This document shows positions 11,838 through 32,000 of a stretch of 32,000 nucleotides of DNA, piece after piece. The number at the start of each line of letters is the position of its first letter. The first letter of the stretch is position 1. The position numbers were made by a program, and so were the translations under genes. The stretch covers positions 930,001 through 962,000 of the forward strand of contig CP006913.1 in the NCBI GenBank assembly GCA_000503875.1, written 5' to 3'. Under the pieces are notes generated by a model, which searched no databases, was not told the origin of the DNA, and was given only the letters and a program-made list of their open reading frames with translations. This DNA comes from Candidatus Saccharimonadota bacterium (GTDB lineage: Bacteria > Patescibacteriota > Gracilibacteria > Absconditabacterales > Absconditicoccaceae).

Positions 11838-11908
11838 TAACTGGACTTTGTTAGTCCTAATTAAAGATAAATCGCTTTTAAGCTGGGGTAACTCGGTTCG
11901 AAATTGGT

Positions 11909-13603
11909 TTATTTTTTGTTTTTGCTTTGGTCTAAAAAATCGGTACCATGGACAGCCGATAACACCGCATCGTATAAAGTCTTTCAGGCGGTTCGAAATC
12001 CATTTTCTTTGGTATATAGTAACTTCTCCCCAAAGAGAAGGCTAACCAAAGTCGATTTCAACTCAGTATTCGATAATTCCCAAACCGTTTTGGGTCACAT
12101 ATAAATCTTTTTTGCTTGAACCAATAAATTTTCTAGCTCCTCTTCAGACAGTTTTGAGTCTTTTTCGATCTCATTTTGGAGCTTTTCTTTTTCCAAACGA
12201 ACCAATTCCCATTCTCCTTCAAGTTCTTCTACGAGATGGATATTCTGAGTAGTAAGCATTGTCGTACGGATTTTTTTCATTCTTTCTGATACCTCATCAA
12301 GTGCTCTTTGCCTGTCTTGTTTGATCAATGCCTCATATTCATTTCTGTACTTCCATATTTCCTTGATAGTCTCTTCTATCAAATTTCGAACATCTTCATT
12401 AACTGCCACTTTATCCAGTAGTTGATCAAATTGTTCATTCATAAGGTCACGCTTAACTTGAAATCTGTGTGTATCTTTTTTGTTACCACATCCGTAATAA
12501 GCATATTTTTGACTGCGTCCTTTCGCTCGATATCCTGTTAGTTTCACTTCACAATGTCCGCAATATACAAAATCTTTCAATGGGAAATCAGGATTATTTT
12601 TTTGATAAATCTTCCCAATTAATGGATTCAGTTTCATTTTCTTGAGAATTTTCTCTACTGTTTCCATTGTAATCAATGGTTTATGTTTTGCAGGGATAAG
12701 TTCATTAATATCCCATTGAGGATAATAAATAAATCCTGCCATAAAAAAGAGTCTGTTTTCTGTAAACAGATTTTCTACGATAGTTTTGTATAATTCTCCT
12801 CTAGTATTATTCACACTATTGCTTTGTAATCATCTGTCTTTCATGAATCTGAAGACTGCTGATTCGCTTGCTAACATTCCATTGGCATACATTTCCAAGG
12901 CTTCTGAGATGATTGGTCATTTGATAGGATTGACAACTAGGATACTATTTTTGCCTTCTTTGACTCTTGTGTATCCAATTGGCGGTGTACCAAATGGTCG
13001 ATATCATTCTAGCATTCTTGATCTCATTCCATTTTTTGTTTTACATCTTGTGTTCCTTCTCTCAAAAGCTGAAAAAGCATAGAGAATATTCTCCTGGAGC
13101 ATTCCTGCACTGGAATTATAATCCGTAGGATAAAGAACATATACAATTTCTGATCAAGATTGTCTAATTTTACTTGTCATCATTAAAGTCTCTGCCATAT
13201 CATCATTTCTGGAGATTCTTGAATTATCTACACAGACAAAATGAGTAATAAAAGGCACTCATGTCCTTTCATCCTTAAGGGTTTCCAAAGGAAGCGGATC
13301 ACTAGCTTTCCTTTTCTTGTTTTGTTTAGCTCGCTTTTCAAATCTTTTTGTTTGTTTTCATAGGATATCGAGAACTTCATCGAATCCATCTCTTTCAAAA
13401 GATCATCAAGAAACTCATCAGTCCTTGATAATTTTGGCGATCTGAACATTGTTTTTTTCGCATCGATCTTTACACATCGATTCCTGTGTTTCAATACCGA
13501 ACTGTTCATTTTGTTGTTTTTTGGAAGATACACGGCAGTAGACTAACGCTACTTTCTTTGAATCATCCTTGCTCTTGTTTTCAAGAAGATTTTTTTTATA
13601 CAT
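11909..13603 (-). CDS. large serine recombinase (phage integrase)
   Basis: ATG 13603-13601. Resolvase domain VALVYCRVSSKKQ and DGGVSGGSFERDGF (four TGA = Gly, 13403-13420). Then a recombinase domain, zinc ribbon CGHC...YYGCG and a C-terminal coiled coil. The track stop 12095-12097 is TGA; the first real stop is TAA 11911-11909, adding 62 codons. Confidence 0.85.
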
Positions 13604-14040
13604 AGTTTGTTGTTAAAAAAGATAAAAAAGTAAAAAACACATTTGTTAGTGAAAGGTCTAGTTCTCCCAAACTATACCTTTTTTGTTATAACTAATATTA
13701 AGCCAATTTTCAAGCCAAATATAGATCAACAAATAACCTTCAAATGTGTTCGGCAAACTCCGATAACTTCTCCACTTCATCATCGGATAAATGATCTCAA
13801 GTTCTCCCTAGAAGAAATCTAGAGCTTGAGATTGGAAGTATTCTTTTTTTTTCGAAAAACTCCCCTGACTATGAGTAGTCAGTTTGTCAAAAGATGTTTC
13901 CATTGCTATAATTATGGTTAAAAAATAAAAGAAGACTAATTATATCACAAAAATAGAAAAAACACAAAAAATAGGCGGTTTGGGAGCATAATCAGCTTGA
14001 AAAAATAAAGAAACTTGATATAGTTATGCCAACGAAAAAA

Positions 14041-14092
14041 GAGTACTTGTGAATCTAGGAAGAATAATACCTTCCTGCGTTCTCAGGTACTC
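14041..14092. terminator. long imperfect hairpin flanked by an A-run and a T-run (candidate bidirectional terminator or structured RNA)
   Basis: Outer stem gagtacttgtgaat / gttctcaggtactc (one mismatch plus G:U pairs). Inner stem ggaag/cttcc with loop aataata. A6 at 14035-14040 and T5 at 14093-14097. Confidence 0.45.
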
Positions 14093-14118
14093 TTTTTAGT
14101 TATAAAAGAAATCCTGTG

Positions 14119-14550
14119 ATGAATCAAAAAAGATGAAGGAAACCAGTCACTGAGTATAAAACTCACTATAAAATGTATAAAGATGCATTTCAACATCTCC
14201 TTAGATATATCCATGAAAAGAATCTCCAATCACTGTATACCAAATGAAAGATCTCCTTTGGTATCCAAGAAAGCGATGTCGTCCTCTCCTATATTTTCCA
14301 AAACATAAAGATCGAATCAACGATCAAGATTGATATGTCTGACCGTAGACATATTGATGAGCTCAATAAAGCGATCCAAGATTTCTTTATCGATACTCGG
14401 TATATGTATGAATGGGACTGAACCCCTACCAAAAATCAGGACTTAGCTAGAATCCATTGAATTTCTCCTCAGGCGATGAAGGTCGCATTACAAAATATCA
14501 AAGACAAAATCCTCGAAGATTATGGCGAGCAACTTTCGTATCGTTCGTAA
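14119..14550 (+). CDS. putative DNA-binding protein with a C-terminal helix-turn-helix
   Basis: ATG 14119, TAA 14548-14550, with four in-frame TGA. The C-terminal QDLARIHGISPQAMKVALQNIKDKI looks like an HTH (sigma-70 region 4/LuxR-like). No family assignment was possible by eye. Confidence 0.5.
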
Positions 14551-14581
14551 TTTTTTCTTTTACTTTTTTTTCAATCTTCTC

Positions 14582-15805
14582 ATGCAATTACAAATCCAGT
14601 TATTCCCAATCGACAAGATTATCCCATATGAGTTCAACAACAAAATCCATCCTGAAGAGCAGACCAATAAAATAGCAAACTCAATCCAAGAATGTGGATT
14701 CAGAGCTCCTATTCTTATTGATGAGAATAATATCATCTTGGCAGGTCATGGTAGATTACTCTGAGCTCAGAAACTTTGATTGACTGAAGTTCCTGTGATC
14801 CAATACACCGATCTGAATGAACTCCAGAAAAAGAAATACAGAATCCTTGATAACAAATTATCTGATCTCGCTGAACGAGATATCGAAAACTTAAAGATCG
14901 AACTCGAGGCTATCGATGATCCTGATTTGAATCTCCTTTTTGATGATCTTAATCTATGATTGGATGATGAACTCGATGTCGATGAAGACAAAGAAGATGA
15001 AGCTCCTGAAGTTTCTGAGAAAATTTGGGTGGAGAAAGGAGATATTTTTCAACTCTGAGAACATAGACTTTTGTGTGGCGATGCTACCAAGCTTGATGAA
15101 GTCCAAAAACTAATGGATGGAGAGCTTTGCGATCTTGTGATAACTGACCCTCCTTACAATGTAAACTATGAAGGAAGTAATGGTCTTAAAATTCAAAATG
15201 ATAATATGGGAGATTCAGATTTCTATCAGTTCCTGTATGATGTATATACCAATCTTTGTATGGTACAAAAAGACGGTGGATCAATCTATGTGTTCCATGC
15301 TGATACTGAATGAGAGAATTTCAGAAAAGCGATGGTAAATGCTGGATACAAACTGTCTCAATGTTTGGTGCGAGTGAAAAATGCACTGGTAATGGGAAGA
15401 CAAGATTATCATCGAAAGCATGAACCTATCTTATATGGTTGGAAAAAAACATGATCTCACAATTGGTATTCAGATAGAAGTCAGACGACTGTTTGGAATT
15501 TTGATAAGCCTTTGAAAAACGATGTTCATCCTACGATGAAGCCAATTGATATTTTAGTCTATCCAATAAATAATAGTTGTAAAAAATGAGAACTGGTCGT
15601 TGATTTGTTTTGATGATCAGGAAGTACTATGATTGCTTGTGAGAAGACTTTTAGAAGATGTAATATGATGGAATTGGATGAGAGATATGTGCAAGTAATC
15701 ATTCAAAGATATTTTGAATACACAAAATGACAGAAACCTATCAAGTGCCTTTCTAGGAAATTAGATGTAAAGAAATTTTTATCAGAAACTCCAGATAAAA
15801 AATAA
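14582..15805 (+). CDS. ParB-like N-terminal domain fused to a beta-class DNA methyltransferase (DPPY, N6-adenine type likely)
   Basis: ATG 14582 (an alternative in-frame ATG lies at 14522), TAA 15803-15805. ParB-N pattern [18 protein letters not shown]...ILAGHGRL. MTase motif IV ITDPPYN lies upstream of motif I DLFGGSGST (GG = TGA TGA 15611-15616), plus VHPTMKP. Confidence 0.9.
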
Positions 15806-16284
15806 TGAGATATAATTGGTCAGAGCTTAGGAATGAATTTATGCAGGGAGATTATCTCTCAATTTTTGATTTCTACAAACAGCACCAAAACCGCACGAAA
15901 ACCGCACCTAAAAAAGATATGAATGGGCAACGAAAAAAGATGACAAAAGGTCGAGCTGAAGAAAAAGATCACATGAAAAAGCAAGTTGATAACCGAATAA
16001 CTGAACACAAAAACAGTATTGAAGATGAATTAAAAGCCAAGATGTCAGAAGAATTGCATGTTGATATCCAGGAGCTTATCAAACAAAAGAAAGCACTCTT
16101 TATTTTGATTAATAAAAAGATTGTTCATCTAGCCAAAAACAGTCCCGAAAATATCACTGCCAGGGATATTAACATTTTACTTGATATGGTAAAAAGGGAA
16201 CTTGGAGAACCGACTAATCTTAGCAAAAATCATAATATTGAAGAGAAATCCTTTATCCCTTCAGAAGATGAATTAGATGACTAA
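15805..16284 (+). CDS. terS: putative terminase small subunit
   Basis: Intact 159-aa ORF with no TGA. Its ATG overlaps the upstream TAA (TAATG) and its end overlaps the terL start by 8 nt. Its position directly upstream of terL is the main argument. Confidence 0.45.
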   Translation: MRYNWSELRNEFMQGDYLSIFDFYKQHQNRTKTAPKKDMNGQRKKMTKGRAEEKDHMKKQVDNRITEHKNSIEDELKAKMSEELHVDIQELIKQKKALFILINKKIVHLAKNSPENITARDINILLDMVKRELGEPTNLSKNHNIEEKSFIPSEDELDD

Positions 16285-17797
16285 CGAAGGGAATAAAAGA
16301 CCAACAAAACTGGCATCTAAATCCTGGAGATTATCTCATCTATACAAAATTGTTGATAAAAATTCTCAAACTATCACTTTCAAAAGAAATAATGCACAAG
16401 AAAAGCTTAATGCCTACATCAAAGAACTCAAAGAAAAAAACTGATTTGTGAGATTGATTATCTTGAAAGCAAGACAACTTTGAGTGACCACGGATAGATT
16501 GGTTGATGGTCTTGATGAATGTCTCTTAAAAAAGAATCAGAACATAGTTATCACTGCCCACAATAGAGAAAAGCAAAAAGAAATCTTCCAAAAAGTGAAA
16601 TACTCATACCAACAAACTCCTGACGGTCTTAGAACAGAAAAAGGTGTCCGATATAAGCCAAAACCAAAGTATGATAATGTGAATGAATTATATTTTCCTA
16701 CCAACCACTCTAAGATTCAAGTTTCCTTGGATAGTAGATCATGAACACCTACCAAACTTCATATCACGGAGCTTGCATTTAGAAACGATGCCAGGGAGAT
16801 GATGGCTGGTACTTTACCATCAATGCCAAAGACTGCTGACATCATTATTGAAACCACAGCCAATTGAGTAGGTAACTACTTTTATGAGATGTGGAATAAA
16901 TATTATGGAAGAGATGATGGAGAATTCAAAACGATCTTTATTGGTCGATGGTTTGCAGATGAATATGCAAGCGAGATAGAAGAAGGAGAAATGATTGTCC
17001 TTCCGATTGAACTCAAACATCTCGAACAACTCCCCATTACTGAATGACAAAAAAAATGGTATCTGCAACAATACGATCTTTTGTGAAGAGATGTTTTCCA
17101 AGAGTATCCAAGCACACCTGAGGAGGCTTTCTTGACTACTGGAGATACCGTTTTCAATATTCAGATTATCAAGAACCTAGAGAAACTAAAGTATGTCGAA
17201 GATATGAAATTTCCGAAACTCAGAATCTATGCAAAACCTGGAGAAAAATGTCTGTTTGGTATCGATACTGCTGAGGGTTGAAAGGATGGAGATAGCTCTT
17301 CTATCTCAGTCAGGGATACAGATATGAAACTCCTGGCTTTCTTTTACTGAACGATACCACCTGATGAACTGTGTGTGGTTGTTGATAGGCTTGTTGAATT
17401 ATGATACAAAGGGATCATTGGAGTTGAAAGGAATAATACCTGATTAACCACTATCACCAAAGCCAAGGAATATCCATGGTACGATATGCTCTATACAGAG
17501 AGAACTATTGATAAGATCACAAACCAACCGACAAGAAAATTCTGACGACAAACGAATACAAAAACAAGACCACTCATGATCAACGAATATGAAGAAGCGA
17601 TCAGAAGATGATTTATTGATCAGGTGGATGAGAGATTAAGAACGGAGATGTATTCGTTTATTTACAATGAGAAAAACAAACCAGAAGCACAGGAAGGAAC
17701 TCACGATGATGCGATCATCTCAGATGCTATCTGTTATCAAATGAGAAAGGAACTAGCATACGATATGAGCTGGGCATTAGAAACAACACAAAACTAA
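16277..17797 (+). CDS. terL: terminase large subunit
   Basis: ATG 16277, TAA 17795-17797. Walker A-like ILKARQLGVTT (Gly = TGA), IHITELAF. Nuclease-domain acidic motifs FGIDTAEGGKDGDSSS and THDDAIISDA. The whole frame was translated without TAA/TAG. Confidence 0.9.
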
Positions 17798-17835
17798 ATC
17801 TTGAAAAACAAAAAGGAAATCATATACATCATAGT

Positions 17836-18246
17836 ATGATGAAATATGTAAAAAACCTATTCTTAATTATAATTACAGGGATATATCTCATTCATAGCTC
17901 TTTTGCTTTAGGACTATGATTTTTGGGACATCATGAAAAAAATGTTGACCAAAATAATATAAAGACGACTCAAACTTGTTGATCTGAAAGTGAAAGTTGT
18001 TGTTCTACTACCAATAGCTGTATAAACCTTTGTGTATCAGAAGAATATCAAACTTATTCAACATCAAATTTAAAACTCCACGATCATAATGAACAATGTG
18101 ATGATAGTTCACTAAAATATCTTTCTTCATTTACATATAGATTAGAGGCACTTTATATAGTTTCTCTCAAGACTTCATTTTCACCCAAAAACATCTTTGC
18201 ATTTGATGCAACAGATCTCGTCTGAATTATTAAACTCACAATATAG
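17836..18246 (+). CDS. secreted Cys/His-rich small protein (possible metal-binding)
   Basis: ATG 17836, TAG 18244-18246. Signal/TM N-terminus MMKYVKNLFLIIITGIYLIHSSFA, then GHHEK, the cluster CGSESESCCSTTNSCINLC and HDHNEQC. Confidence 0.5.
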
Positions 18247-18268
18247 GATATAAATAACAACTTCGAAA

Positions 18269-18293
18269 AGCATATTTAGTATGCTCCTTTTTT
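18269..18293 (+). terminator. weak hairpin plus T-run after the Cys-rich gene
   Basis: Stem agcata (18269-18274) / tatgct (18280-18285), 5-nt loop, then cc + T6. The stem is short and AT-rich. Confidence 0.4.
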
Positions 18294-18313
18294 AGTTTTT
18301 ATTTTTATCTACA

Positions 18314-19246
18314 ATGAAACAAATGACACAAATGAACCCAAAACAACATATGCAACAAATTCTTATTATACTATGAGTAGCGATAATTATCGTAATAGGA
18401 TTTAGTTTCTTTCAAACAAACAGAGTTATTTCTTGGTTAGAAAATAATGAAGCTCAAAAAGTTTGATGACAAGAAAATTACGAAACTATTCAAAAAATAT
18501 ATTGAAGCGACACATTCAAGAGCCAACAAAAAGCATCATTAGGACAAGCATTAGGTCAAATGCAATGAAATACTAACGGGAATGATAATGCAAATACTAA
18601 ACAGACTCAACAAGAACAACCAAAACCTACAAACATAACTAAATCTGATAAACCAGCAGTAGATTTATTCATTATGTCATATTGTCCGTATTGACTACAA
18701 GCTCAAAAAGGAATCCTAGATGTAATGAAAAAAATGTGAAATGTTGCCGATATAAAGATTAAATTTGTGCATTATCTTATGCATGGAAAAAAAGAAGCTG
18801 AGGAAAATGTAAGACAATATTGTATACAAGATCAACAAAAAGATAAATATACAAAATATCTTGAATGTTTTTTGAAAGAAGAATGAAAATCTGAAAGCTG
18901 TTTAAGTGAAGTTTGAATTGATACATCAAAGTTGAATTCGTGTTACACTGATACATTTAAAAAATATAATATTGAAGAATTATTGGCTTCATGAGGACAA
19001 AATCCATCATTTCCTGTAAATGCTGATGAAAGTAAATCTTTTGGAGTACAATGATCTCCAACATTAGTTATCAATTGAGCTATTGTAAATGCTTGAAGAA
19101 GTGCGAATGATTACAAAGAAGCTATTTGTAATGCATTTAATGACAAGCCAGCTATTTGTAACGAAGATTTCGTAAAAGTTCCTTATGACCCTATGTTCGG
19201 TTTTACAAGTAATGGAAAATGAGTCGCATGATGATGTGGACAATAA
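18314..19246 (+). CDS. membrane-anchored DsbA-like thioredoxin-fold protein (active-site region CPY-TGA)
   Basis: ATG 18314, TAA 19244-19246. N-terminal TM helix and a Q/N-rich linker. FIMSYCPYG (18683-18694) sits at the position of a CxxC motif. The cis-Pro loop GVQGSPTLVINGAIV is typical of DsbA/Trx folds. The C-terminus is GKGVAGGCGQ. Confidence 0.7.
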
Positions 19247-19277
19247 TTTTTATTTGGTAATACCATACAGAAAATAT

Positions 19278-20441
19278 ATGAAAAAAATTATTGCCCTTTG
19301 TGGCTTACTTTTTGTGTTTTTTTATAGTTTAACATTTGCAGAAGAATATACTTTTTTCTATGGAAATTGATGTCCTCATTGTGCAAATGTTGAGAATTTT
19401 TTCAACGAAGAAAAAATTGAAAAAAAGTTTAATATAACATCTAAAGAAATCTATTTTAATAGGGACAATCTAAAAGATCTCAACTATTACTTAGAGAAGA
19501 TGAACCTTCCATCTGAAAAGATGGGTATCCCTTTTCTCGTCATTACTAGTTGATCAGATACTTCTTACCTCAATGGTGATGAACCTATTATTGATTTCTT
19601 TACGAAAAAGCTCAATCAAAATACTACTTCATGAACATGAGAAAATGTCGCCTCAACTTGTGCATTAACATCAGGTAGTGATTCTTCAACTTGTTCATGA
19701 TCTTCTACCACAAACTGAATAAATCCTCCATGAGGAGTCAAAGATTGATTCAAAAACAGACTTTCTTTCTTTGCTATTATGCTTCCTGCGGCGATCTCGG
19801 ATAGTATCAATCCCTGTGCTTTCGCAGTAATGTTTCTCTTATTGTCAGCAATATTATCAAAGCATAAAAGTAGAAAGAAGGCACTCCTTGCAGGATTTAT
19901 GTTTGCATTGGCGGTATTTATTAGTTATCTAGCAATGGGAATATGATTATTTTCTGCATTGGCATGATCTGGTAATACATTCATTCTCAAATTAGTAGTC
20001 TGAATCTTATGAATTCTTGTTTGACTTGCTAATATCAAAGATTACTTTTGGTATGGGAAATTGTTTGTGATGGAAGTTCCATTCTCACGAAGACCCAAAA
20101 TGGCAGATCTAATAGATAAGGTCTCTTCTCCACGATGAGCATTTGCTGTAGGAATTCTCGTAAGTTTATTCTTACTGCCATGTTCTTCATGACCTTACTT
20201 TACTATCTTAGGATATCTAAGTTCTGAAAGCAAAACACTAACTAATTGGTGATATCTCTACCTTGTTATATACAATCTAATTTTTGTATTACCTATGGTA
20301 ATTATTGCTATATTGGTTGGATTTGGATATAGCACAGTTGATAAATTAGCCAAAGTTAAACATCAGAATACAAAACTTATCCACTTAATCGTTGGACTGC
20401 TTATGCTTGGCTTAGGTATCTATGTACTAGTAACGATTTAA
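19278..20441 (+). CDS. fusion of an exported thioredoxin-like domain (CPHC) with a CcdA/DsbD-type transmembrane thiol-disulfide electron-transfer domain
   Basis: ATG 19278, TAA 20439-20441. Signal peptide, then FFYGNGCPHC (19368-19382). A Ser/Thr/Cys linker, then multiple TM helices with the two signature Cys motifs SINPCAF and LLPCSSGPY. Fully translated without TAA/TAG. Confidence 0.85.
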
Positions 20442-20460
20442 TTTATTTTGTGAAATTATC

Positions 20461-22410
20461 ATGGCAACATTCAAAGAATTACGATGAATACAAAAATTTC
20501 GTATGATCATAATATGACTATTGTGTATTCTGCCTTTAGAGATACTCTCTCTATATGGACAAAGGTTTTTAGGTATTTGAGAACGAATACTGTTTCTTAT
20601 TATCTGAATAATCTTTTGAAAAGAGATTTTATTAAAGGGAGTAAAGTCATTATTTCGTTTGAAATTCAGTGATATAAATCTTTTAATGATCATAGCGATT
20701 GGAGGTGCAAGTTATCTTGGTGAGCTTCCTGAAGCTATGATTATCATAGTACTTTTTGCTTTGGGAGAAATGTTGGAAGATTATTGAATTATGAAAAGCA
20801 AACAAGCACTAGAAAACCTTACAAACACTATGCCAAAGATAGGTTTTATAAAAGATATCTGAGAGGTTGCCATAGATAAGATCACGATTGGAAGTATCCT
20901 CATTGTCAAATCATGAGAGCAGATACCCGTAGATTGAAAAATTATTTTTGGTGATGCTTTGGTTGATGAAACAACTATAACCTGAGAACCTTTACCTAAA
21001 TCAAAAACAATAAGCGAAGCTGTCTTTTCGTGAACTATGAATATAAGTTGATATTTAGAAATAGAAACAACAAAGAAATGAGAAGATAGCACATTAGCAA
21101 AAATAATAAATATTACTTACAATTCTTCACAAAAGAAAGCTAACTATCAAAGATTTATACAGAAATTTGCACACTATTATACTCCATCAGTGATGGTTTT
21201 AGCTTTGCTATTAGTTGTCATACCAGTGGTCTTTCTCTGATGAGATTTTAATCACTGGTTTTGACAAGCTATTACACTTCTGATTATTGCTTGTCCTTGT
21301 GCTCTAGTTCTTTCTACTCCTGTAGCGGTTTTCTCTGCAATAGGAAATGCAACATCCCATGGCATTGTCATCAAATGAGCAAAATATCTGGAAGAAATAG
21401 GAAAAATAAAAGCAATCGCTATGGATAAAACCAGAACTCTTACAAAAGGAGAACCACAAATATCAGATATTATCTCACTTGATTGAGATGATGAGAATAC
21501 CTTCCTTGCATGTATAGGTGGTATGGAACAATACTCGGAACACCCCATCGCTCGTTGTGTTGTACAAGAGGCACAAAAAAGATGAATAGAATTACATAAA
21601 CATAAAGATTTTGTGTCAGTCTGAGGAAAAGGAATAAAATCTGAATGTTTAATTTGTAAGGACACCCATCGTTGTTTGGGAAGTGCTAAATTTGTCTGAG
21701 AAGAACATAATATACCAGAACAGATAAAGAAAAAAATCTATGCTTTAGAAGAAGAAGGGAAGACTATTATCCTTGTCAGTAGCCATCAAAAAGTCATCTG
21801 AATAATAGGAATCATAGATACTATAAGACAAGAAAGCAAAGATACTGTAAATGAACTAAGAAAGATGAGTATTGAAGTAGTTATGCTAACATGAGATCAT
21901 CAAAAAGCTGGAGAAATTATTGCCAAAGAAGTAGGAATAACGAATATCAAAGGCTGATTATTACCTGATCAAAAAGCTGAAGAAATAGAGAAATTAGTCA
22001 AAGAATATGGTAGTGTTGCTATGCTTTGAGATGGGGTAAACGATGCACCAGCTTTGGTATTGTCATCCGTAGGTATTGCTATGGGTGCAGTGTGATCTGA
22101 TATGGCTATAGAAAATGCAGATATAGCTCTTATGAATGATAAGATTTGACTGATACCTTATCTTATTCGCCTAAGTAGAAACTGTCATAATATTATTAAA
22201 TTCAATACAGCTCTCGCAATAGGAGTCAAAGCATGTGTGCTATGATTAGCAGTTTTTGGTATTAGTAATCTAAGTCTAGCGATTGTGAGTGATGTTTGAG
22301 TTACAATCTTTGTTGTTATCAATAGTCTAAGATTATTCTGAGTGAAAAATAAGTCTTTAAAGTTTGAACATAAAAGCAAAAAAGATGATTGTTGTGAGGC
22401 TTGTCATTAG
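20461..22410 (+). CDS. P1B-type heavy-metal-translocating ATPase (CPC type; Cu or Zn/Cd specificity unresolved)
   Basis: ATG 20461, TAG 22408-22410. [18 protein letters not shown] (21292-21300), the phosphorylation site as DKTRTLT (21424-21444), [24 protein letters not shown]. There is no N-terminal HMA domain. The C-terminal tail is [10 protein letters not shown]. Confidence 0.9.
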
Positions 22411-22456: not shown

Positions 22457-22488
22457 ACACAGTGGTAGTTTTATCACTGTGTTTTTTT
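22457..22488 (+). terminator. rho-independent terminator closing the cargo block, ending 1 nt before the portal ATG
   Basis: Stem acacagtg (22457-22464) / cactgtgt (22475-22482), 10-nt loop, T6 at 22483-22488. Confidence 0.65.
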
Positions 22489-22489
22489 C

Positions 22490-23968
22490 ATGCAACAACA
22501 AATATATCTTGATAATATCATCACAAAAGAAGTCAGCACCAGAGGTAAATTCAAGAAGATTTACGAAAATGATGCCAGCCATTTTGTGTTGGGAACTTTC
22601 AAAGCTAATGTCTTTAATATCAAAACCTATCTCAGTAACCACAAAAACAAAGATGAGTATTTGTATTTGAATGTGAACCTCCTTTCTTTGATGGCAAATA
22701 CTACTGCTGATTATATCATTGGTGATGGAATAGAAATCGATATTGATAACGAACAAGCCAAAGCAAAACGAGATGAGATAAGTGAAGCCAACGGATTTGA
22801 TGAGTTGCTTTACAACATCGCTTTGAATACTTGAATCTATGGCTATGCAGTTTTAAGATCAAGAAAAGATGACAAGGACAATATTGTAATTGAAGAGATA
22901 CCTTACGATTATTACTTTCCACAAATTGAATGATTATTCTTGGGAGAAGACCCCAACAAAATCTATCTCATCAGCAAGATCAACGAAACTTTATGAAGTT
23001 CTATCCAACAAAAAGCAAAAATACAATCCTACACCAAACAAGAAAACTGAAACTGGTTGATTGAATATGGTTTGTATTCAGTCGCTCTTGATGGTACTCA
23101 GTACAGTTTAGAAAAAGAACTCGCACCTGCTGAGACATTAGACTTCTTGAACATCTATCGTTTTGATAACAGGAAGGTCAGTTGAAAGTATCTAGGCAAC
23201 AATGACTACACAGATATTCTTGATCTTCTAGAGGAAGTGAACGACAGGTTTACCCAAATATCACTCCAGTTTATCAAACATCTCAATAGTAAAATTTCAC
23301 TTCCTGAATGAGTATCTGCACTCCTTCAAAACAAAGATAAATCAATCCACAACTTAGAAGTCTTTGTGCATAGACAAGGAGAGCAACCAGCTCAGTATAT
23401 CGAAAACCATAATTCATTGATCCCTGAAGCACAAACCTACATCGATAAGATACTCAAACTTATCGGAGCGATAACTCAAATCCCTATCTCTTTCTTTGGG
23501 TTTGAAGAATCCTGAGGAGCCGAGAAGGTAGAAGCACTCAGGATCAGGCTCACAAGATTTCTCAAGAAGATACAAAGAAAGCAAAGAATGATGGAACTGA
23601 CTTTGAAAAAGCTGATCAAAGAAACTCTAGCTTTTGCAGGAGTTCAAGGAGAGTTTTCAATTGATGTTAAATTCTCAGATGCGATGTTGAAAGACCTGCA
23701 ACAAAACACTCAGATGTATATTGATTTGTATAATAACAAACTTGTATCTCAAGAAACAGCAATCGCCAATATCTTTTCTTGGGAAAAAGACATGGTACAA
23801 AAAGAACTCGCTATCATCAAAACAGAACAAGAAGAGCAACAAAAAAAGCAGATAGAATTGAATAAATCTTTACCAACTAACAAACCAAATAATGGCAGTA
23901 ATTGATCCAAACAAGACAAACCAGGAACTAAGGGAAGTGCTGATTCTTCTTTTACTAACAAACAATAA
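22490..23968 (+). CDS. portal protein (SPP1 gp6-like by size, position and pattern)
   Basis: ATG 22490, TAA 23966-23968. It joins track ORFs 22490..22834 and 23588..23905. About 492 aa, upstream of scaffold and capsid. The internal stretch was fully translated without TAA/TAG. Confidence 0.8.
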
Positions 23969-24128: not shown

Positions 24129-24755
24129 ATGCCTGAAGATAAAAACAATCCCAACGGAACAGGTGCCGATACTACCTGAAATCCAGCTCCAGCAAGTGAC
24201 ACCCCACCTGCATGAACTGATCCTGATAAAAAGGGTGATGACAAAGTAAACAATGATGCAGTCCCATCTCGAAGACTTAAAGAAGAAGCTGACAAAAGAA
24301 GAGAAGCTGAAAATAAAGTCAAAGAGTATGAAACCAAGGAAGCCGAAAGAGAAAAGAAGAACCTTGAAAAACAAGGGAAATTCAAAGAGCTTTTGGATAC
24401 GGCAAACCAAGAAATTGAAACTCTCAAAGGTAAAACAAAAACCATTGATGAGTATGACAAAGCGATGGAAACTTTGGTAAGTACAGAACTCGAAGCTATC
24501 AAAACAAGTCTCGGAGAAGAAAAATATAAAAAGATTGAAACACTCCTAGACCTTCCAAACAAGACAGCTTTAGAAAAACTTCAAACTCTCCCAAAGATCA
24601 AAGAACTTGTCAGCGATTTCGTAGAAAAGAAACCTGATCCAAAATGAGGACAAGGTATCCCTCCACACGATACCAGCACCTATGACAAAGCAAAATCACA
24701 AGGTGACTTCAATTGAATGCTTAGTTCGATCATCGAAACAGCAATCAAAAAATAA
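24129..24755 (+). CDS. scaffolding protein
   Basis: ATG 24129, TAA 24753-24755. Low-complexity N-terminus, then a long charged coiled-coil-like stretch (RRLKEEADKRREAENKVKEYETKEAEREKKNLEKQ). Located between portal and capsid. Confidence 0.6.
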
Positions 24756-24781
24756 TCTTTATTTCATAAATTATTTTACTC

Positions 24782-25945
24782 ATGCAACTTTCATTTGATC
24801 TTTCACAAATTACCGAAAGACAGGTCTTAGACCTCTTTACACAGTTTCTTAAAGAACAATCATCTGCTTTGGAGATTTTCTTGAGAAATGGTGCCTGATA
24901 CAATGCAGGTACAAACAATAAATACGAGTGGATGGAAAGCCAACTCACTCCTATGTCCTGGGCAGTTAATGGAACCGTAACTCCTAGCGATTCTCCTGAA
25001 TCAATAACCTTCAATTCAACTGCTGGTATGAGACCAAATATGATCTTAAGATTTGTGTATACAGCCGACAATACTGATATTGAAGACTTACAAATCAAGA
25101 TCGTTTCTGTTGATAGTCCAACCTCTGTAAAAGGTATCGTTTATGGTGGTACCACTCCTATTGATCTTGATGCTACTATGACTGCAAAACTTATGTCAGA
25201 AGCAGTACAAGAAAATGAAAAGAATATCGTTGGAGTTGATGAATGGAAACCAACTATGGAACACAACTTTTTCCAAATCTTCAGAAATGCTGTCGAACTT
25301 TCTGATACAGCATTGAACTCTGCGGTCTATGGAAATGTAAATACTCTCGCTGAACAACTCAAAGGAGCTTTCTACAAAATCAGACAGCAACTTTCTGAAC
25401 AAGCTTTGAGAGGTCGTAAAGTAGCAAGAACTGGTGGAGAAAATGGAACCTTCGGAGGTCTATTCCAATTTACTGATATCGCTGGTGGTAACATTCTCGA
25501 TGCAGGAGGTGGAGATCTAACTTCTACTACTATCAATGATCTTGTGCAGATGATTATTGAAGACGGTGGTGTCGCAAACACTCTCGTTTGTAATATCAAT
25601 CAAGCAAGAAAAATTAGTGGATTCAATGTTTCTGGAAATAATCCTGTGATCGCACAAAACTCTACACAAGCAGGAAGTTATGTCTTGAGATTTATCTCAG
25701 ATATTCCTGTGGCTGGTGGTGTTGTTTCAAATATCCTTCTTGATGAGAAGATGCCAAATAATGCAGTTGATTTGATTGATATCAATAGACTTGCATTGGT
25801 ACCATTTCAAAATAGAGGTTTGAAACTTGTGCCAGGAACCCAACCAGGACAAGACGGTCAGACTGCGATCTTGAGATGAGAATATACCATGGTTGTTAAA
25901 GATGGTAAATACTCACACGGTCGTATCAAGAACCTTAATCCCTAG
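24782..25945 (+). CDS. major capsid protein
   Basis: ATG 24782, TAG 25943-25945. It extends track ORF 24932..25879 at both ends through TGA codons. About 387 aa, following the scaffold gene. The call rests on composition and position. Confidence 0.75.
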
Positions 25946-25972
25946 TTTTTAATTCTTAATTATTAAACAGCA

Positions 25973-26299
25973 ATGTCCAAAAAAGATATTCAAGATACTA
26001 ATCAGGCAGATCAAACAACTCCTGATACAACAGCTACAACTCCTGAAGATACTCAGGAGCCTGTAGTTGAAAAAACAAAAGAGCCAAAAGAGAAAGTTGC
26101 TAAACCTACGGCAACAAAAACGGTGTATTTTAGAAACAAGAACATCTCAAGCCTTGCTTTCAATACGGCGGATAAAAGACTGCATCGTTTTAGAGATGGT
26201 GTCTTTGCTACTGATGAACCTGAGGTGATCGAATCCTTGAAAAAGACACTCGACTACAAACATGGTCACATCAAGGAGTTTACTCCAAAGAAAGACTAA
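25973..26299 (+). CDS. hypothetical head-module protein (T/P/E-rich N-terminus)
   Basis: Intact 108-aa ORF with ATG and TAA and no TGA. It lies directly after the capsid gene. Confidence 0.55.
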   Translation: MSKKDIQDTNQADQTTPDTTATTPEDTQEPVVEKTKEPKEKVAKPTATKTVYFRNKNISSLAFNTADKRLHRFRDGVFATDEPEVIESLKKTLDYKHGHIKEFTPKKD

Positions 26300-26324
26300 T
26301 TTTATCTTTTAGCAATAACCAAAT

Positions 26325-26513
26325 ATGCATGTTGTAATAACCAGAGACTGCCAAGTCAACAACATCTTCTATGGCAAAGGAAACGAAGTCCATGTTGATA
26401 AACATCTCTTCAATCCTGATTGTATGGAAGAGGTCAAGCCTTCGGATGAAGCACCCATAGAACCTGTAGATAATGCAGATTCACCACCCCAAACTTCTAA
26501 GAAAAAGAAATAG
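26325..26513 (+). CDS. hypothetical small protein
   Basis: Intact 62-aa ORF with ATG and TAG, followed by a strong terminator. Confidence 0.45.
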   Translation: MHVVITRDCQVNNIFYGKGNEVHVDKHLFNPDCMEEVKPSDEAPIEPVDNADSPPQTSKKKK

Positions 26514-26519
26514 AAGACT

Positions 26520-26551
26520 AAAAAAGATAGGATACCCTTCCTATCTTTTTT
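26520..26551 (+). terminator. rho-independent terminator after the head module
   Basis: A-run, stem gatagga (26526-26532) / tcctatc (26539-26545), 6-nt loop, T6 at 26546-26551. Confidence 0.75.
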
Positions 26552-26614
26552 AGATTTACTTTCCGTGGTTTTGAGTATAGTTTCATTTGTTTTAGCTTTC
26601 TTTTTGAAACACAA

Positions 26615-27049
26615 ATGAACCACAATATCACTCCTGAGTATGTTAAACAAATCAGCATCGTGAGTAATCTCCTGGTTGAAAATGATGAGATCATAGAAAA
26701 ATATATCACGAGAGCTTTGTCACTCGTTTTATCGTACATCAATGGTCAGATTTTTTTTGATGAATCTAGTCAGACTTATACTTTTCCAGAAGAGCTCATG
26801 CAAGCGATCGTGTATGTTTTAGAAATGATTTATATCGATCAAGGAATGTTTACTGGAAAAAACAGTATCCAATCAGAAAAGATCGGAGATTATTCCTATC
26901 AGAAAAAACAAGATAGCAGATCGTTTCCACTAGATCTCCCTGCCAATATTATGGCGATGCTTGATAAATATAGAACCCTTGCATGAAATCTTGATGTAGA
27001 TATTGGAGGCTATGACAGACTTTATCCTTCAGAAAATACAGATGATTAA
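26615..27049 (+). CDS. head-tail connector (gp6-like adaptor) protein
   Basis: ATG 26615. The track stop 26984-26986 is TGA; the true TAA is 27047-27049. Size, position and an N-terminal pattern (ITPEYVKQ...IEKYITRALSLVLSYING) are typical of phage connector proteins. Confidence 0.55.
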
Positions 27050-27374
27050 AGATTTATATACTCATACGGTAGCAATAGAAACTCCTGAGATGTTAAATAT
27101 TGATGGGATCGAAACCAAGAATTATATCCCAGTAGGAACATTCAAAGGAAGACTATCAAAAGCATGAAGCCAACAAATGGTTGATCTGACGACAGGGAAA
27201 CTCCATAGAGTTCAACCTGAGATTTTCTTTTTGTATATTTCTGATGAGACACCTATTGGAAAAAATGATAGGGTCTATATTGAAGGCAACTTTTACTTAG
27301 TCAACTCTGTGGAGGTTATCTTTGATTGAAGGGTAACTCACCACCTTCGTTGCATAATTGAAAGACGGCAATAA
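27012..27374 (+). CDS. head closure / head-tail joining protein
   Basis: ATG 27012 overlaps the previous gene; TAA 27372-27374. It is 120 aa. The assignment is positional within the conserved connector series. Confidence 0.5.
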
Positions 27375-27856
27375 TGGAAGTAAAAATCAATCAAGAAGTT
27401 TTAGAAAAAGTATTCAGAGCCGAGAGAGATGCTTTGCAAGATACAGCTCAGTATGTTTTGCAATTACTCAAAGAGAAAGTCAAAAAGGAGGCTTTTGATA
27501 CTTGAGAGTTTGAAAAAAGTCTGTTTGTGAAAGTAATTTGAAATTGAAATGTAATCCAAATCTGATCAAGAACAGCACAGGCAGTCATCATGGAATTTTG
27601 AAGAAGACCACTCCAAAAAAGACCGCCTATGGATTCGTTAGTTTGATGGGCAAGCCGTCATGGAATGATAGCAGGTTGAGTAAAAAGCTATGCAAATCTG
27701 AAATCAAAAGACAAGTGAACGGTCTATCTTCTAGCCACTTCAATTGCAAAGAAAGGTATCAAACCAAGGGAGATTTTTAGGAAACTTTACAACGAAACCA
27801 TAGATCAGATTAATGCTTATTTTATCTCAGCTCTCAAAAAAAGACTTTGATCATAA
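27374..27856 (+). CDS. HK97 gp10-like tail-component protein
   Basis: ATG 27374 (TAATG overlap), TAA 27854-27856. It contains 9 TGA codons. IGSRTAQAVIMEFGRRP...PPMDSLVGWASRHG matches the gp10-family pattern. The standard-code track instead shows a spurious alternative-frame ORF at 27538..27780. Confidence 0.65.
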
Positions 27857-27878
27857 TTTACTTCACTAAACAAGACCC

Positions 27879-28328
27879 ATGGTACCAACGCCACCGCCAC
27901 CACCAGTAGTGATAGAACCACCAGTCCCTATCAATCTCAAAAAAGCAATCTACGAATATTTATCATCACTTCCTGAGTTATCAGAAACAATCCAAGGAAG
28001 GGTTTTTAGGAAAAGATCACAATCACAAACTCAGACACCATTTATTGTTTATGATGTGAGTGGCTATGAAAATAAACTTTGAAAGTACCAATGAAAACAT
28101 GGATATCAAGGAAACAAGCTGACGATAGATATTATTTGAAACTATGAAATTGAAGAGCAACTCAGAGAAATTGGAGAACTTTTGGTATCTAAGTTATGAG
28201 GCTTTATTGGGAAGTTAAGACCATGCCGAAAATGAACAATCAATCTGATGTGAGTAGATGAATGATACGATGAAAAAACCGATTATTCCGTATTTAGACT
28301 TATGTTTTTATGCAAACATACCTTTTAG
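27879..28328 (+). CDS. tail completion/terminator-like protein (DUF3168-like), with a proline-rich N-terminus
   Basis: ATG 27879, TAG 28326-28328. It extends track ORF 27879..28082 through TGAs. It begins MVPTPPPPPVVIEPPVP. The assignment is positional. Confidence 0.5.
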
Positions 28329-28402
28329 ATTGATAAATTTTTAATCTGACTATATTCCCATTGCTGGTATTTCATTTCTTTATTTATTTCATTTTTACTC
28401 TC

Positions 28403-29173
28403 ATGACACAAACAACATGAATCATCAATGATCAGAGGTTGCTGGCTGGTGCTGGAGAATTCTACTACTGATCTTCTTTATCATCTCTAGTAAGGCTTGG
28501 TGCTTATAGAGATGCGGTTATTGAATCCAAAAGAGAAAGTTCCGAGCTTGTCTTTGATAACGACAAGATCAACAAATTCAAAAAGGGTTCTGAGTTCTCT
28601 TTCAAATTCAAACTTTGTGAAATCGATCCTGATACTTTAGCAAGTCTCAATGAAGGTTGGATCACAAAAACTTCTATCCCTGGAACACTTGTTTCTGGAG
28701 CAACTCAAGTGATCGCATCAAATACGATCCAGTTTCTATCACTCGTTGAACTCGAACATCAAAACTACGATAATGGAGCGATCAGTATTACTTCAATCGT
28801 TGGTTCTGTAGATGGGACAATCTCTGCTTCAGATTATTTTCAAGTAGTCTGACCTGCTGGTAGAAGAAACATCTACTTCAAATCAGGTGGATCAGTAACA
28901 ACTCTCAATCAAACTTTCACGATTACTTACAATTATACTCCTGCACAAAGTAGAAAATTTACCTTTGCAGACACAGGAATTGCATCTAGATTCTATGCAA
29001 GATTTATTCACGAGAGACCTGATGGTAAACAAATCACTATCGATCTTAAAGATGTCCAAAACTTGACTTGATTAACGATAGACTTTGTTGGTAATAGCGA
29101 GGACGATGTAGCTACCTGTGATATAGAACTCAATGGTAAAGTTACATCTCAAGGATTTGTTTATGAAGTATAG
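28403..29173 (+). CDS. major tail protein
   Basis: ATG 28403, TAG 29171-29173. About 256 aa, immediately upstream of the chaperone pair and tape measure. It is absent from the standard-code track because of 5 in-frame TGA codons. Confidence 0.6.
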
Positions 29174-29217
29174 TGTCAGTGACACACTCGTTTTAATATC
29201 TTCACTATTTTTCGTTG

Positions 29218-29583
29218 ATGTTTGAAATTAATCTAGAATGTTTCTTGTCCAAAGAAATAACAATCAAGCTCTGAAAAGATCTGTTTATTCTCGAACAGCC
29301 AACCGTAAAACAACTGGCTGATATCATCAAGAAGACAGAAAGTATGGGACAAGATGAAGTCAAAAACACGAAGATCATGATTGAGGTTTTACAGTCATTT
29401 TTGAAAAACAAATGATGGTTTGGATATACCAAAGCTAAACTTTGATCTATTCTCAAACATCTCACTCCTGAGAATCTAGTCCTTGTCCGAAATGAGATTT
29501 TTTTTTGATTGGGGCTGACCAAGGAGCCACTTCGTGAACTTGAAAGTGATCTAACCAAACAGCAAGCTTCATCTCCTTGATAG
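29218..29583 (+). CDS. tail assembly chaperone (gpG-like, 0-frame product)
   Basis: ATG 29218, TAG 29581-29583. Located between the major tail and tape measure genes. It contains the slippery U-run. Confidence 0.6.
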
Positions 29584-29774
29584 CCCTGTTTATCAAATAC
29601 TATAACCAGGAACTGGAAGCAGTACTCAATATGACAGCTTGCCAGTTTTTTGGGTTATTGGAAGAGATACAATATTTGGAAGACCCGAAAAAGATAAGGA
29701 AAACCAATCTTCCAAAACAGAAGATCAAGAAATTGGAAAACAAAAAAGACTTTGAAGACTTTTTCTTTGGATAA
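29218..29774 (+). CDS. gpGT-like frameshift fusion chaperone (0-frame 29218-29505, then -1 frame 29505-29774)
   Basis: The -1 frame downstream of the slippery site contains track ORF 29577..29774 and is continuous back to the T-run when TGA = Gly. The architecture matches the conserved G/GT arrangement upstream of tape measure genes. Confidence 0.5.
29499..29505 (+). promoter_or_regulatory. candidate -1 programmed ribosomal frameshift heptamer, U UUU UUU
   Basis: A T9 run at 29498-29506. The 0-frame reads ATT TTT TTT TGA. The -1 frame is open from 29505 to TAA 29772-29774. Confidence 0.55.
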
Positions 29775-29845
29775 AAAATAAACTGATAAAACTCAATTCT
29801 GATTAAAACTGGAGGTAGTAATTTACCTCTTTTTTTTTGATGTTT

Positions 29846-32000
29846 ATGGCAACAAATAAAATCTTTGAACTTCTCCGAGATCTCAAACTTGATAGAACCT
29901 GAGTAGCTCAACAACTCAACCAGGTTAGAGATGATATCAATGGTTTCAATCAAAGAATCAAAGATCAGACCGCTTTGCAACTTTCTTTGAATGTAGGAAA
30001 TCTCAAAACCAAACTTGATGAAGTTAAAGCACAAATAAAACTGGCAAAAGAACAAGGAAACCGTGACGGAGTTATCCAACTAACTGCCGATGCTTCGAGG
30101 ATTCAACAATCACTAACTCAAGCAGGTAGAGAGCTGAGGAATTATACAAGAACCTGATCGTCAGATATCTCAGTTTTATGAAAAAACTTTCAAGGAGTTA
30201 ATACGGAGATACTCAAACAATGAGGGATTATCCAAAGTACCGTTCAGAAAATGAAGGTCACTTTTTCGTGATTAAAAGAGATTATCCTGACTGCTTTTTC
30301 TGTTACTGCGATTATTGGATTTGTGAAATCTTTATTCACTCTATCGTCAGAACTCCAGCAGGCAAAAATAGCCTTCACTAATATGTTTAAGAGTGAAGAG
30401 ATAGCGATCAAACTTCTTAAACAAATTCAGGCTTTTGCAAAACAAACTCCGTTTGATCAGATGGGACTTATCGACTGAGCCAAAAGACTATCTGCCTACG
30501 GTTTCAAAGCAAATCAAATTCTTCCAATCATGAAATCGCTCGGAGATGCTGTGGCTGGTGTGGGTTGAAACCAAGATACCTTAAATGGTGTGATCGTAGC
30601 CCTTGGACAGATGCAAACCAAAGGAAAATTGGTGCAACAAGAAGTAAATCAGATCGCTGAAAGAGGTATCCCTATTTTCGAGATTTTGAGAAAAAAACTC
30701 GGTTTGACTCAAGAACAATTGGGTAACATCTGAGAACAAGGAATCTCCTCAGCCAAAGCTATCCCATTAATCTTGGAAGGTATCAATGAAAAGTTTTGAT
30801 GACTTATGGAACAGCAATCCAAGACCCTTCAAGGAAAGCTCTCAAATATGATTGATAGTTTCAAAATTAAGATGGCAGAGCTTGGATTGGTACTGGCTCC
30901 CATTTTCTGAGGTATCATCTCGAGTTTGCAAGCAATCATTACTCCTGTCTTCAATATCCTGATCTTAGGAATCAAGGGGCTATGAGTCGTATTCAAAACT
31001 GTGTTTGATGGTGCAAAACAGGTCTATCAATTTTTTGCTAATAATTTTGTCATCATTACAAAAACAATCCTGGCGACTTTTCTGTCTGCTTTGATTATCA
31101 TGAAACAACAAACGGTCATTACCTTTTTGCAAGGAATCGTGAACACTATTATCAGATGAATGGCGATAGCTTGAACTGCCGTGATTAATTTCTCAAAAGC
31201 CAGTCGATACTTCATAACCAACCTGAGAACAATAGTCGTCGAGGCTACCAGAGCTACGGTCGCCTTTATCAAAAAATGAGTAGCTCTTGCAGTAACTACC
31301 GTCAGAACATATGCACAAATTATAGCCAACAACCTCGCTTCATTATCTTTTCGTAGTCTTGGACTTTCTATTTTAGGTGCATTGAAAAATCTTTTATTGT
31401 TAGGTGCGAGGTTTTTCTTGATCGGTACAATCGTAGCAACCGTAGTGATTGCGATCTATAAAAACTGGAGTGTATTGAAAGAGAAATTGAAACCTGTCTT
31501 TGAGTTTATGGCAAAGGTCTGACAGGCAGTTCCTTGAGCGATAGCCAAAGCATGGAATTTTTGTGTTGATGTTATTTTTGGAGCTATCAAAGGGATATTG
31601 AAGTCCTGAAAGGCTGTCGCTGATTTTCTTAAAAATACTTTCAATGTGGATATTGGAAGTGCAAAGATTGATAAATATATCTCAGATATTGAGAACATGA
31701 GACAGAAACTTCAAACCAATGAAGGAGAAATCAAATCGGTATTTGATGGGATCAAAGAAGAGGCAGTCTGAGCCTTTGAATTTGTAAAAGATAATGTCCT
31801 GGGACTTGGTGATGCTACCAACCTCCTGTGAGGTGATGTTTTATCGTTGAATGGAAAATTTGATGATATGTGAAATGCTTCTGAATCGGCTGGTAAAAAA
31901 TGATCCAAAGCAACCCAAGAAGCCAAAGACCAACTTGCTGAATTAAAAAAAGAAACTGAGCAAGTAGAGAAAGCAAACGACAGACTAGAAAAAGCAATAA
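29846..32000 (+). CDS. tail tape measure protein (partial; continues beyond the window)
   Basis: ATG 29846 (in-frame ATG also at 29840). Translated to position 32000 without TAA/TAG. The core matches TP901-type TMP: AFTNMFKSEE...FAKQTPFDQMGLIDGAKRLSAYGF...SLGDAVAGVGG...ALGQMQTKGKLVQQEVNQIAERGIPIFE. It also has hydrophobic segments and coiled coils. Confidence 0.9.

Follow-up and report, generated by a model that had tools for sequence, protein, structure and literature searches.

The stretch of DNA analysed in the current study, referred to hereafter as the window, comprises 32,000 nucleotides (positions 930,001 to 962,000 of the forward strand of contig CP006913.1) of the closed 1,177,760-bp genome of candidate division SR1 bacterium RAAC1_SR1_1, a Candidatus Saccharimonadota bacterium which GTDB places in the Absconditicoccaceae. 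The paper describing this genome (Kantor et al. 2013, PMC3812714) discusses the decoding of UGA as glycine, and its text does not mention a prophage. At the left margin of the window, a minus-strand ORF (3 to ~1649) forms the beginning of a gene that extends out of the window and whose product is 4,350 aa long in public gene calls, a giant protein for a 1.18-Mb genome. The left part of the AT-rich window (~33% G+C) carries the minus-strand genes for SSB, LepB (signal peptidase), HSP20, HolA (DNA polymerase III delta subunit) and SecA, which lie to the left of a plus-strand tRNA-Leu(CAA) gene; to its right, a minus-strand gene for a large serine integrase is followed by a plus-strand series of packaging, head and tail genes. 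Judged by its gene content and boundaries, this right-hand region is very probably the left 20 kb of a 45,161-bp temperate phage of siphovirus type that is integrated in the RAAC1_SR1_1 chromosome, and it is termed the element below. A first-pass annotation, made from the letters of the window alone, had likewise proposed an integrated tailed prophage at this position, with which the family matches of the integrase and of the packaging, head and tail proteins agree. The element extends from window position 11835 to window-equivalent 56995 (all positions past 32000 are given as window-equivalent coordinates) and has a G+C content of 33.2%, compared to 30.5% for the flanks. Its complete sequence was obtained from two public contigs of run SRR944699 (a sediment metagenome, PRJNA167727), of 45,191 bp in the Logan assembly and 45,288 bp in that of ENA, each of which is 100% identical to the window; these assemblies were entered using phage open reading frames (ORFs) free of TGA codons, namely the 108-amino acid (aa) gene at 25973-26299 and the 121-aa version of the putative small terminase subunit gene (terS). 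The whole element was assembled from four overlapping loci without conflict, and contains no broken genes; its proteins match those of the RAAC1_SR1_1 record (AHB41642-AHB41680) exactly.

The tRNA-Leu(CAA) gene (11752..11834, plus strand; Rfam RF00005, 54.4 bits, ending at 11834; ARAGORN 11752-11837), which is the sole tRNA gene in the window, forms the left border of the element. The pentamer GGGTA at 11830..11834 is the sole sequence common to attB, attL and the phage right end, and is followed by the left end of the prophage (11835..11908), which serves both as the P' arm of attL and as the 3' untranslated region of the integrase gene. The host attB site runs from ..CTCTGGGTA into TACCAT.., while attL runs from ..CTCTGGGTA into CCATAAC.. 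and the phage right end reads ..GTTCGGGTA; the junctions deduced from these sequences are CTCTGGGTA followed by CCATAACTGG for attL, GTTCGGGTA followed by TACCATAAAA for attR, CTCTGGGTA followed by TACCATAAAA for attB, and GTTCGGGTA followed by CCATAACTGG for attP. As attB, attL and the phage right arm have GGGTA alone in common, the crossover is placed within this pentamer, at the discriminator base of the tRNA, and we propose that the large serine integrase would join phage attP to host attB by an exchange at this point. The deduced attP (..GAAGTCCTGTTCGGG TA CCATAACTGGACTTT..) is an imperfect palindrome in which 11 of 15 positions match around the centre, as would be expected of a site for a serine integrase. 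A palindromic TA would be unusual as the crossover dinucleotide of such an enzyme. The body of the tRNA is intact up to the discriminator base and would be retained upon integration, while its 3' trailer, TAC.. in the empty site, is exchanged for the phage-supplied CCA at 11835-11837, so that the lysogen encodes the CCA end. In the empty site the tRNA is followed by a hairpin terminator (AAAACCGAGATAAAAATCTCGGTTTTT), which integration moves 45 kb away, to attR.

An unoccupied copy of the site was found on a 79,919-bp Logan contig of run SRR6485897 that carries the same SSB. This contig is identical to window positions 1230-11834 (0 mismatches), diverges from it exactly between 11834 and 11835, and continues beyond the tRNA from ..CTCTGGGTA into TACCATAAAATATT.., two small genes and a Mur ligase gene, the product of which does not differ from its RAAC1 counterpart (100% identity). 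In SRR944699, the host-right contig (191,357 bp) begins with GGGTATACC.. and shows no mismatch to the empty-site contig over 13,655 nt; in all, 24 kb of flanking sequence is 100% identical to the empty-site genome, which argues that insertion or loss of the element was very recent. The same empty arrangement (SSB, tRNA-Leu, ~2 kb, Mur ligase) occurs in two related species (loci L034 and L086). Syntenic relatives were collected by scanning genome contigs with SecA (best match 87%), and a metagenome scan with the Mur ligase contributed one of the empty-site relatives. The first-pass annotation had claimed a defined left junction, had suggested that attB be sought by comparison with insert-free genomes, and had allowed that relatives might show no break in synteny; the SRR6485897 contig fixes the junction to the base and supplies attB, and the empty sites place a synteny break at the element.

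Within SRR944699 itself, 11834 is the last base of the host-left ENA contig (122,857 bp), the phage ENA contig begins 127 nt (equal to k) to the left of the 11834/11835 junction and so overlaps the host-left contig, and the right end of the phage contig is ..CGGGTA in two different assemblies, such that the host-left, phage and host-right contigs all break at GGGTA. Breaks at one and the same pentamer in two assemblers point to alternative junctions in the sample, as would be left by a mixture of lysogens and prophage-free cells. In another Absconditabacteria metagenome-assembled genome (L007, JBAXSM010000018.1, positions 1114-2853), the orthologous tRNA-Leu(CAA)/SSB locus has a different large serine recombinase, with 29% identity to the present integrase, directly at its side; elements of more than one family seem to use this site, which would make it an integration hot spot.

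The integrase gene (11909..13603, minus strand; 564 aa, AHB41642.1) lies 72 nt from attL. Its product matches PF00239 (1.3e-18) at residues 19-83, with the motif YCRVSS, and phrog_95 (5.8e-50) over residues 127-524, and scores 25.1 bits for Zn_ribbon_recom, slightly under the cut-off of 25.3. The rightward block starts with a gene (14119..14550) for a 143-aa protein that is 71-99% identical in relatives and has no family match in Pfam, PHROGs or NCBIfam; its C-terminal stretch (DLARIHGISPQAMKVALQNIKDKI) resembles sigma-70 region 4 or a helix-turn-helix (HTH), and it is a possible regulator of the rightward operon. It is followed by a fusion of ParB_N and an N6/N4 DNA methyltransferase (14582..15805; PF01555 2.2e-24, ParB_N, phrog_498 8.3e-151), by putative terS (15805..16284) and by terL (16277..17797; 506 aa, AHB41647.1), which matches phrog_2 (2.7e-19), is ~29% identical to the TerLs of Vibrio phages, and gave no sequence match in the PDB. 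The terS product is 159 aa long (the public gene call starts later, giving 121 aa), is 60-94% identical in relatives and gave no match in Pfam or PHROGs; a single-sequence AlphaFold model of low confidence (pLDDT 67.5) is all-helical with a 74-residue helix.

The head genes begin with that of an SPP1-type portal protein (22490..23968; PF05133 2.8e-17, phrog_533 1.4e-23), which is directly preceded by a terminator-like hairpin identified by consensus scan (22457..22482, plus strand). A candidate scaffold gene (24129..24755; 68-99.5% identical in relatives), proposed from its position and the coiled-coil character of its product, gave no specific family match. The major capsid gene (24782..25945; AHB41654.1, publicly annotated as 'phage protein' only) is of the SU10/DUF5309 type (PF17236, 1.7e-44). 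It is followed by two small genes without a family match (25973..26513; 108 and 62 aa), a head-tail adaptor gene (26615..27049; phrog_4931 2.3e-10 and a weak match to Phage_connect_1), a gene in the head-closure position (27012..27374; no family match, 39-95% identical in relatives) and a gene for a Neck1/HK97 gp10-like tail-completion protein (27374..27856; phrog_5, 6.4e-9), all on the plus strand. The canonical siphovirus order claimed by the first-pass annotation holds in that the plus-strand genes do follow in series; it omitted four genes of non-phage type that split terL from portal (see below), and its terS and scaffold labels fit by position and find no family match. A promoter scan returned 30 sites compared to 27 +/- 5 in shuffled sequence, and hence no excess.

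The tail genes, also on the plus strand, encode a tail terminator (27879..28328; phrog_78, 3.3e-5), a major tail protein (28403..29173; a weak match to phrog_807, 1.5e-4, and 82-99% identity in relatives), the tail chaperones G (29218-29583) and GT (29218..29774), and a tape measure protein (29840..32000 within the window, ending at window-equivalent 33616; 1258 aa in full, PF20155, phrog_9959 1.9e-42). A run of nine T residues supplies the -1 heptamer T_TTT_TTT at 29499-29505, the -1 frame being open to 29774, and both the slippery run and the -1 frame ORF are identical in an uncultivated virus genome (UViG) related to the element. The -1 frameshift that would give rise to GT, and with it the earlier assignment of G/GT chaperones, thus appears to be real. 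In the zero frame the heptamer is followed by a TGA (Gly) codon (29499-29508), and the 25-nt slippery stretch is identical in a relative whose protein G is only about 73% identical; a slowly decoded UGA might aid the frameshift.

Extension past the end of the window, as the first-pass annotation had recommended, recovered the remaining tail genes, a lysis module and the phage right end. The tape measure gene is followed by genes for Dit, a 351-aa hub and a 1155-aa fibre (a search with the fibre N-terminus returned no homologue), by those for a protein of 133 aa and for a pair of small membrane proteins, of which one has a weak match to holins, and by that of a 120-aa endolysin (phrog_465, 1e-9). 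No sheath gene was found in the element, from which we infer a non-contractile tail. At the right end, the minus strand encodes three small proteins, a PD-(D/E)XK exonuclease (PDDEXK_1; AHB41680), RecT and a 440-aa protein. We propose that the rightward block, from the HTH protein through the endolysin, would constitute the late operon, and that it is succeeded by an 11-kb defence island and then by the leftward early block. All structural genes are full length against their homologues, which speaks against the earlier concern that those downstream might be riddled with stop codons. A gene transfer agent or a phage satellite was also considered and is ruled out by the 45-kb length, the integrase, the full virion module, the lysis genes and the RecT/exonuclease pair.

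Four genes of non-phage type (17836-22410) form a 4.7-kb insert between terL and portal, all on the plus strand. The first (17836..18246) encodes a small Cys-rich protein of 136 aa with a signal peptide and without a family match (NCBIfam included); the second (18314..19246) a membrane-anchored thioredoxin/DsbA-like protein with a CPYG motif and weak matches to GILT, DSBA and Thioredoxin_4; and the third (19281..20441) a DsbD/CcdA-type membrane protein with an N-terminal CPHC thioredoxin-like domain (DsbD_TM 3.8e-6, SfLAP, and a DsbD/ArsG-like NCBIfam match). The fourth (20461..22410; 649 aa, AHB41651.1) is a P1B heavy-metal ATPase of the Zn/Cd type, scoring 549.5 bits for TIGR01525 (cut-off 346) and 477.8 bits for TIGR01512, with PDB matches to the Cd ATPase 7qbz (2e-98) and to ZntA (1e-95). 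This ATPase, which was absent from the IMG/VR search, contains the motifs TGEP, CPC, SEHP and GDGVNDAP. Its phosphorylation motif is DKTRT (R encoded by AGA; residues 322-326, window 21424-21438) rather than DKTGT. The notion of a dead enzyme was rejected, as the arginine is common to every homologue examined, including CPR (Candidate Phyla Radiation) proteins annotated as Cd/Zn ATPases at 52-55% identity, and DKTRT is thus not a lesion.

The insert is host-like in composition, with G+C at third codon positions (GC3) of 0.16-0.25 compared to 0.27-0.41 for the phage genes, and with TGA making up 0.516 of its Gly codons compared to 0.327 in the phage (p = 0.0003; 30 of 60 in the ATPase gene). 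It is absent from between terL and portal in the UViG relative (L002), in ENA contig NODE_1502 (L106) and in a third relative (L107), and in all relatives that retain both genes portal stands directly after terL. Homology to NODE_1502 is lost over the last six codons of terL and regained from the portal ATG on, and a hairpin similar to that at 22457..22482 stands just before the portal ATG in the UViG relative, when the two terL-portal spacers are compared. A search of its flanks revealed neither a target duplication nor inverted repeats in excess of chance. The same four genes occur on an unrelated contig (L100), with 82% DNA identity over 3.2 kb, where the Cys-rich protein has a 62% homologue in the same cassette position, the thioredoxin-like homologue is a Thioredoxin_4 protein and the DsbD-type homologue is 81% identical; the neighbours there are another serine recombinase, an HTH gene and a Rep_1 gene. 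Since the same cassette stands beside a different serine recombinase in L100, the cassette is itself mobile, and its absence from relatives of the element that are 98-99% identical marks it as a recent acquisition. It most likely serves lysogenic conversion, by way of metal efflux and of thiol redox in the envelope, and its genes would be expressed in the lysogen, to the benefit of the latter.

The second body of accessory genes is the defence island, which spans ~11 kb (40570-51948) and was delineated with PADLOC. Within it are encoded SoFic (2.9e-94), a type IIG restriction-modification enzyme (7.7e-161), an additional methyltransferase that accompanies it (2.2e-115), a PDC-S06 AAA ATPase (9.8e-29), a DUF2779 protein and PDC-S14 (3.5e-104); these genes, too, would be expressed in and benefit the lysogen. 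The two restriction-modification genes and the PDC-S06 ATPase gene have a G+C content of only 24%, and TGA accounts for 59% of the Gly codons of the island overall.

Three uncultivated relatives place the element in context. IMGVR_UViG_3300037311_000445 (27,668 bp) matches the element in the order of its genes, from HTH protein through fibre, at 39-82% aa identity, shares the G/GT slippery site and the use of TGA for Gly, and differs in having no cargo between terL and portal. NODE_1502 of ENA ERZ4224321 (36,307 bp) likewise shares the gene order and TGA = Gly, with structural genes that are 94-99.5% identical; it differs in its integrase (52% identical, beside smpB/tRNA-Cys) and in the absence of terL-portal cargo, and it has inserts of its own, HD between head genes and DUF347 plus PAP2 between GT and tape measure. 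Adjacent to the integrase of NODE_1502 lies a tRNA-Cys(GCA) gene, in front of which stands an incomplete, degenerate copy of it (1400-1610); this is probably the att duplication of its different integration site beside smpB. The third, ENA contig k141_975819 (L097), stems from a different SR1 species (SSB 82%) and carries an integrase that is 98.6% identical at the same tRNA-Leu/SSB site, with the junction GGGTA followed by CCATAAC as in the window. It has lost the genes from mid-methyltransferase through the tape measure, the methyltransferase being fused to the last 110 tape measure codons (5983-8026), and retains integrase, Dit, hub and fibre.

Throughout the window, the genes are legible only when TGA is a sense codon. 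ORFs of 100 aa or more total 14 kb if all three stop codons apply, while with TAA and TAG only, long ORFs tile the entire window; in the element, the coverage by ORFs of 100 aa or more is 24% in code 11 compared to 94% with TGA as sense. On the host side, 12 of the 13 TGA positions of SecA that fall within aligned columns are Gly in B. subtilis SecA; in the P-type ATPase of the cargo, the Gly of the motifs TGEP, MLTGD and GDGVNDAP is encoded by TGA. The share of TGA among Gly codons is 73/218 (0.335) in the host genes and 102/312 (0.327) in the phage genes (Fisher p = 0.85), and no tRNA gene was found across the entire element (ARAGORN for the window). With equal TGA usage and no tRNA of its own, the phage is code-matched to its host and depends on the host tRNA-Gly(UCA) for the reading of all of its genes. 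The first-pass annotation had reached the same view of TGA usage, and our recount agrees with its particulars: nine TGA codons among the 160 of the gp10-like gene, and none in terS or in the genes at 25973-26299 and 26325-26513. The major capsid gene contains TGA at only two of 36 Gly codons, compared to 0.33 phage-wide (binomial p = 1e-4), and its homologue in the UViG relative at none of 35. TGA thus seems to be avoided in the capsid gene, which among the virion genes is the one with the highest expression, and this avoidance fits poorly with the view that a high density of TGA reflects adaptation to the tRNA pool of the host; taken together with the TGA that follows the G/GT slippery site, it could indicate that UGA-Gly is decoded slowly enough to affect phage translation.

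A different code in the phage, namely TGA read as Trp (code 4) or a mixed code, unlike the TGA = Gly of the host, is suggested by the public Logan/ENA records, where automatic callers applied code 4 and placed W at TGA positions. In a codon-by-codon alignment of 18 phage proteins with the 80%-identical IMG/VR relative, however, 98 of 182 aligned phage TGA codons face GGN, 52 face TGA and none faces TGG. The invariant Walker A glycine of TerL is itself a TGA codon, as had been claimed from the window alone, KARQL[TGA]VTT aligning with KARQLGFST of two standard-code Vibrio phage TerLs, and TGA stands at six to seven of 12 positions that are Gly in standard-code TerLs; as the phage encodes no tRNA of its own besides, such a divergent code is wildly improbable. 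A somewhat less remote concern is that the locus is an assembly chimera, in which a free phage was misjoined to the SR1 chromosome at a tRNA-like sequence: the phage right arm does end in a stretch that resembles a tRNA 3' end (GGTTCGA...GGGTA), and the junction breaks in both public assemblies. The identity between phage arm and tRNA is, however, 5 nt, far under any k-mer size used, and host-specific sequence is part of the phage contigs themselves, with a length of 30 nt at k = 31 or 127 nt at k = 127, the complete tRNA included. As an independent assembly from another project shows the same junction by SSB in a different host species, and the element lies in a curated closed genome, a chimera is most improbable.

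Integration by a phage being accepted as very probable, it remains to be asked whether the element is still active, and here we put forward, as a possibility somewhat short of even, an active temperate phage that exists in nature in lysogenic and in cured or uninfected cells of one clone, could still excise, and would serve as a main vehicle of accessory genes for a 1.18-Mb genome through a very recently captured cassette and an 11-kb, five-gene defence island. It would instead be a cryptic, fixed remnant, forming no particles, not excising, and kept for its cargo and defence genes, if weight is given to the ~16 of 45 kb taken up by such non-phage genes, to the fact that no excision factor (recombination directionality factor), repressor or replication initiator was recognised among the element genes, and to L097, which at the same site is a deletion remnant, so that decay does occur in this lineage. 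These last two points also weigh against the main reading, that of an integrated temperate phage, as do several others. The 440-aa and small early proteins have no family match, and terS and scaffold are guesses from position. On the side of the junctions, attR is deduced from abutting contig ends and never lies on one contig, and the predicted attP junction was absent from the IMG/VR search; the phage contig carries k-1 bases from the host-left side at one end, whereas GGGTA is the very last sequence at its right end, which simple mixtures of attL, attR and attB do not predict, since k-1 bases of extension into the host-right sequence would be expected. Against a remnant speak the intact, full-length packaging, head, tail and lysis genes, the 24 kb of flanks without a difference from the empty-site genome, and the assembly graphs of the source sample, which fork exactly at the att pentamer; moreover, other samples contain copies of 98-99.5% identity that have a different integrase and a different site, and these show that it has recently spread as a phage. 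On this evidence we regard a fixed remnant as unlikely.

With regard to known systems, phages of the phiC31, Bxb1 and TP901-1 type are temperate siphoviruses with serine integrases, and tRNA 3'-end targets are more typical of tyrosine integrases. The element resembles the former in having a large serine recombinase beside attL and an attB and a deduced attP almost without identity (5 nt here), and differs in that its target is the extreme 3' end of a tRNA gene. The nearest phages in GenBank, those of the Vibrio 1.284.A group and douglas 12A4, share its SU10-type capsid and terL families and folds; they are only 29-31% identical, use the standard code and infect unrelated hosts. Closer in kind are the 15 Absconditabacteria and 12 Gracilibacteria prophages, all of code 25, that were reported by Liu, Jaffe, Chen, Bor and Banfield (mBio 2023, PMC10746230), recognised by portal, terminase, tail and integrase genes and, according to the authors, working only with code 25. 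Like the element, these have code-25 hosts and ORFs dense in in-frame TGA. That study is a survey by coding density, the set of which may include RAAC1_SR1_1, while the present analysis provides base-level ends, an isogenic empty site, att arms, per-glycine TGA frequencies and an analysis of cargo. A second report (mBio 2026, PMC13059738) describes a free code-25 phage, RSA-ATP1, which has its own tRNA-Gly(UCA), unlike the element, as well as two Absconditicoccaceae prophages that are intact, have att sites and stem from oral SR1 genomes (MPSQ01000001 and JABCNX020000008), the element being from an aquifer strain.

The element is accordingly a well-resolved prophage of a kind reported between 2023 and 2026, and leaves the general picture unchanged. 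Cargo in the late operon, a defence island and mosaic integrases are ordinary features of temperate phages, here newly documented for an SR1 host. The view that viruses of such hosts are sparsely described, as put forward in the first-pass annotation, is correct in that those of code-25 CPR bacteria are still few and mostly known as contigs, although the two reports cited above show that their novelty was overstated. The value of the present case lies in an element within a closed, published genome for which base-level ends, attB and attL sequences, a full gene map and an isogenic empty site are available. It may thus serve as a reference for a serine-integrase tool for SR1-type hosts, for testing whether prophages must match the code of their host, and for assessing the share of defence and metal tolerance that is borne by phages in a 1.2-Mb genome.

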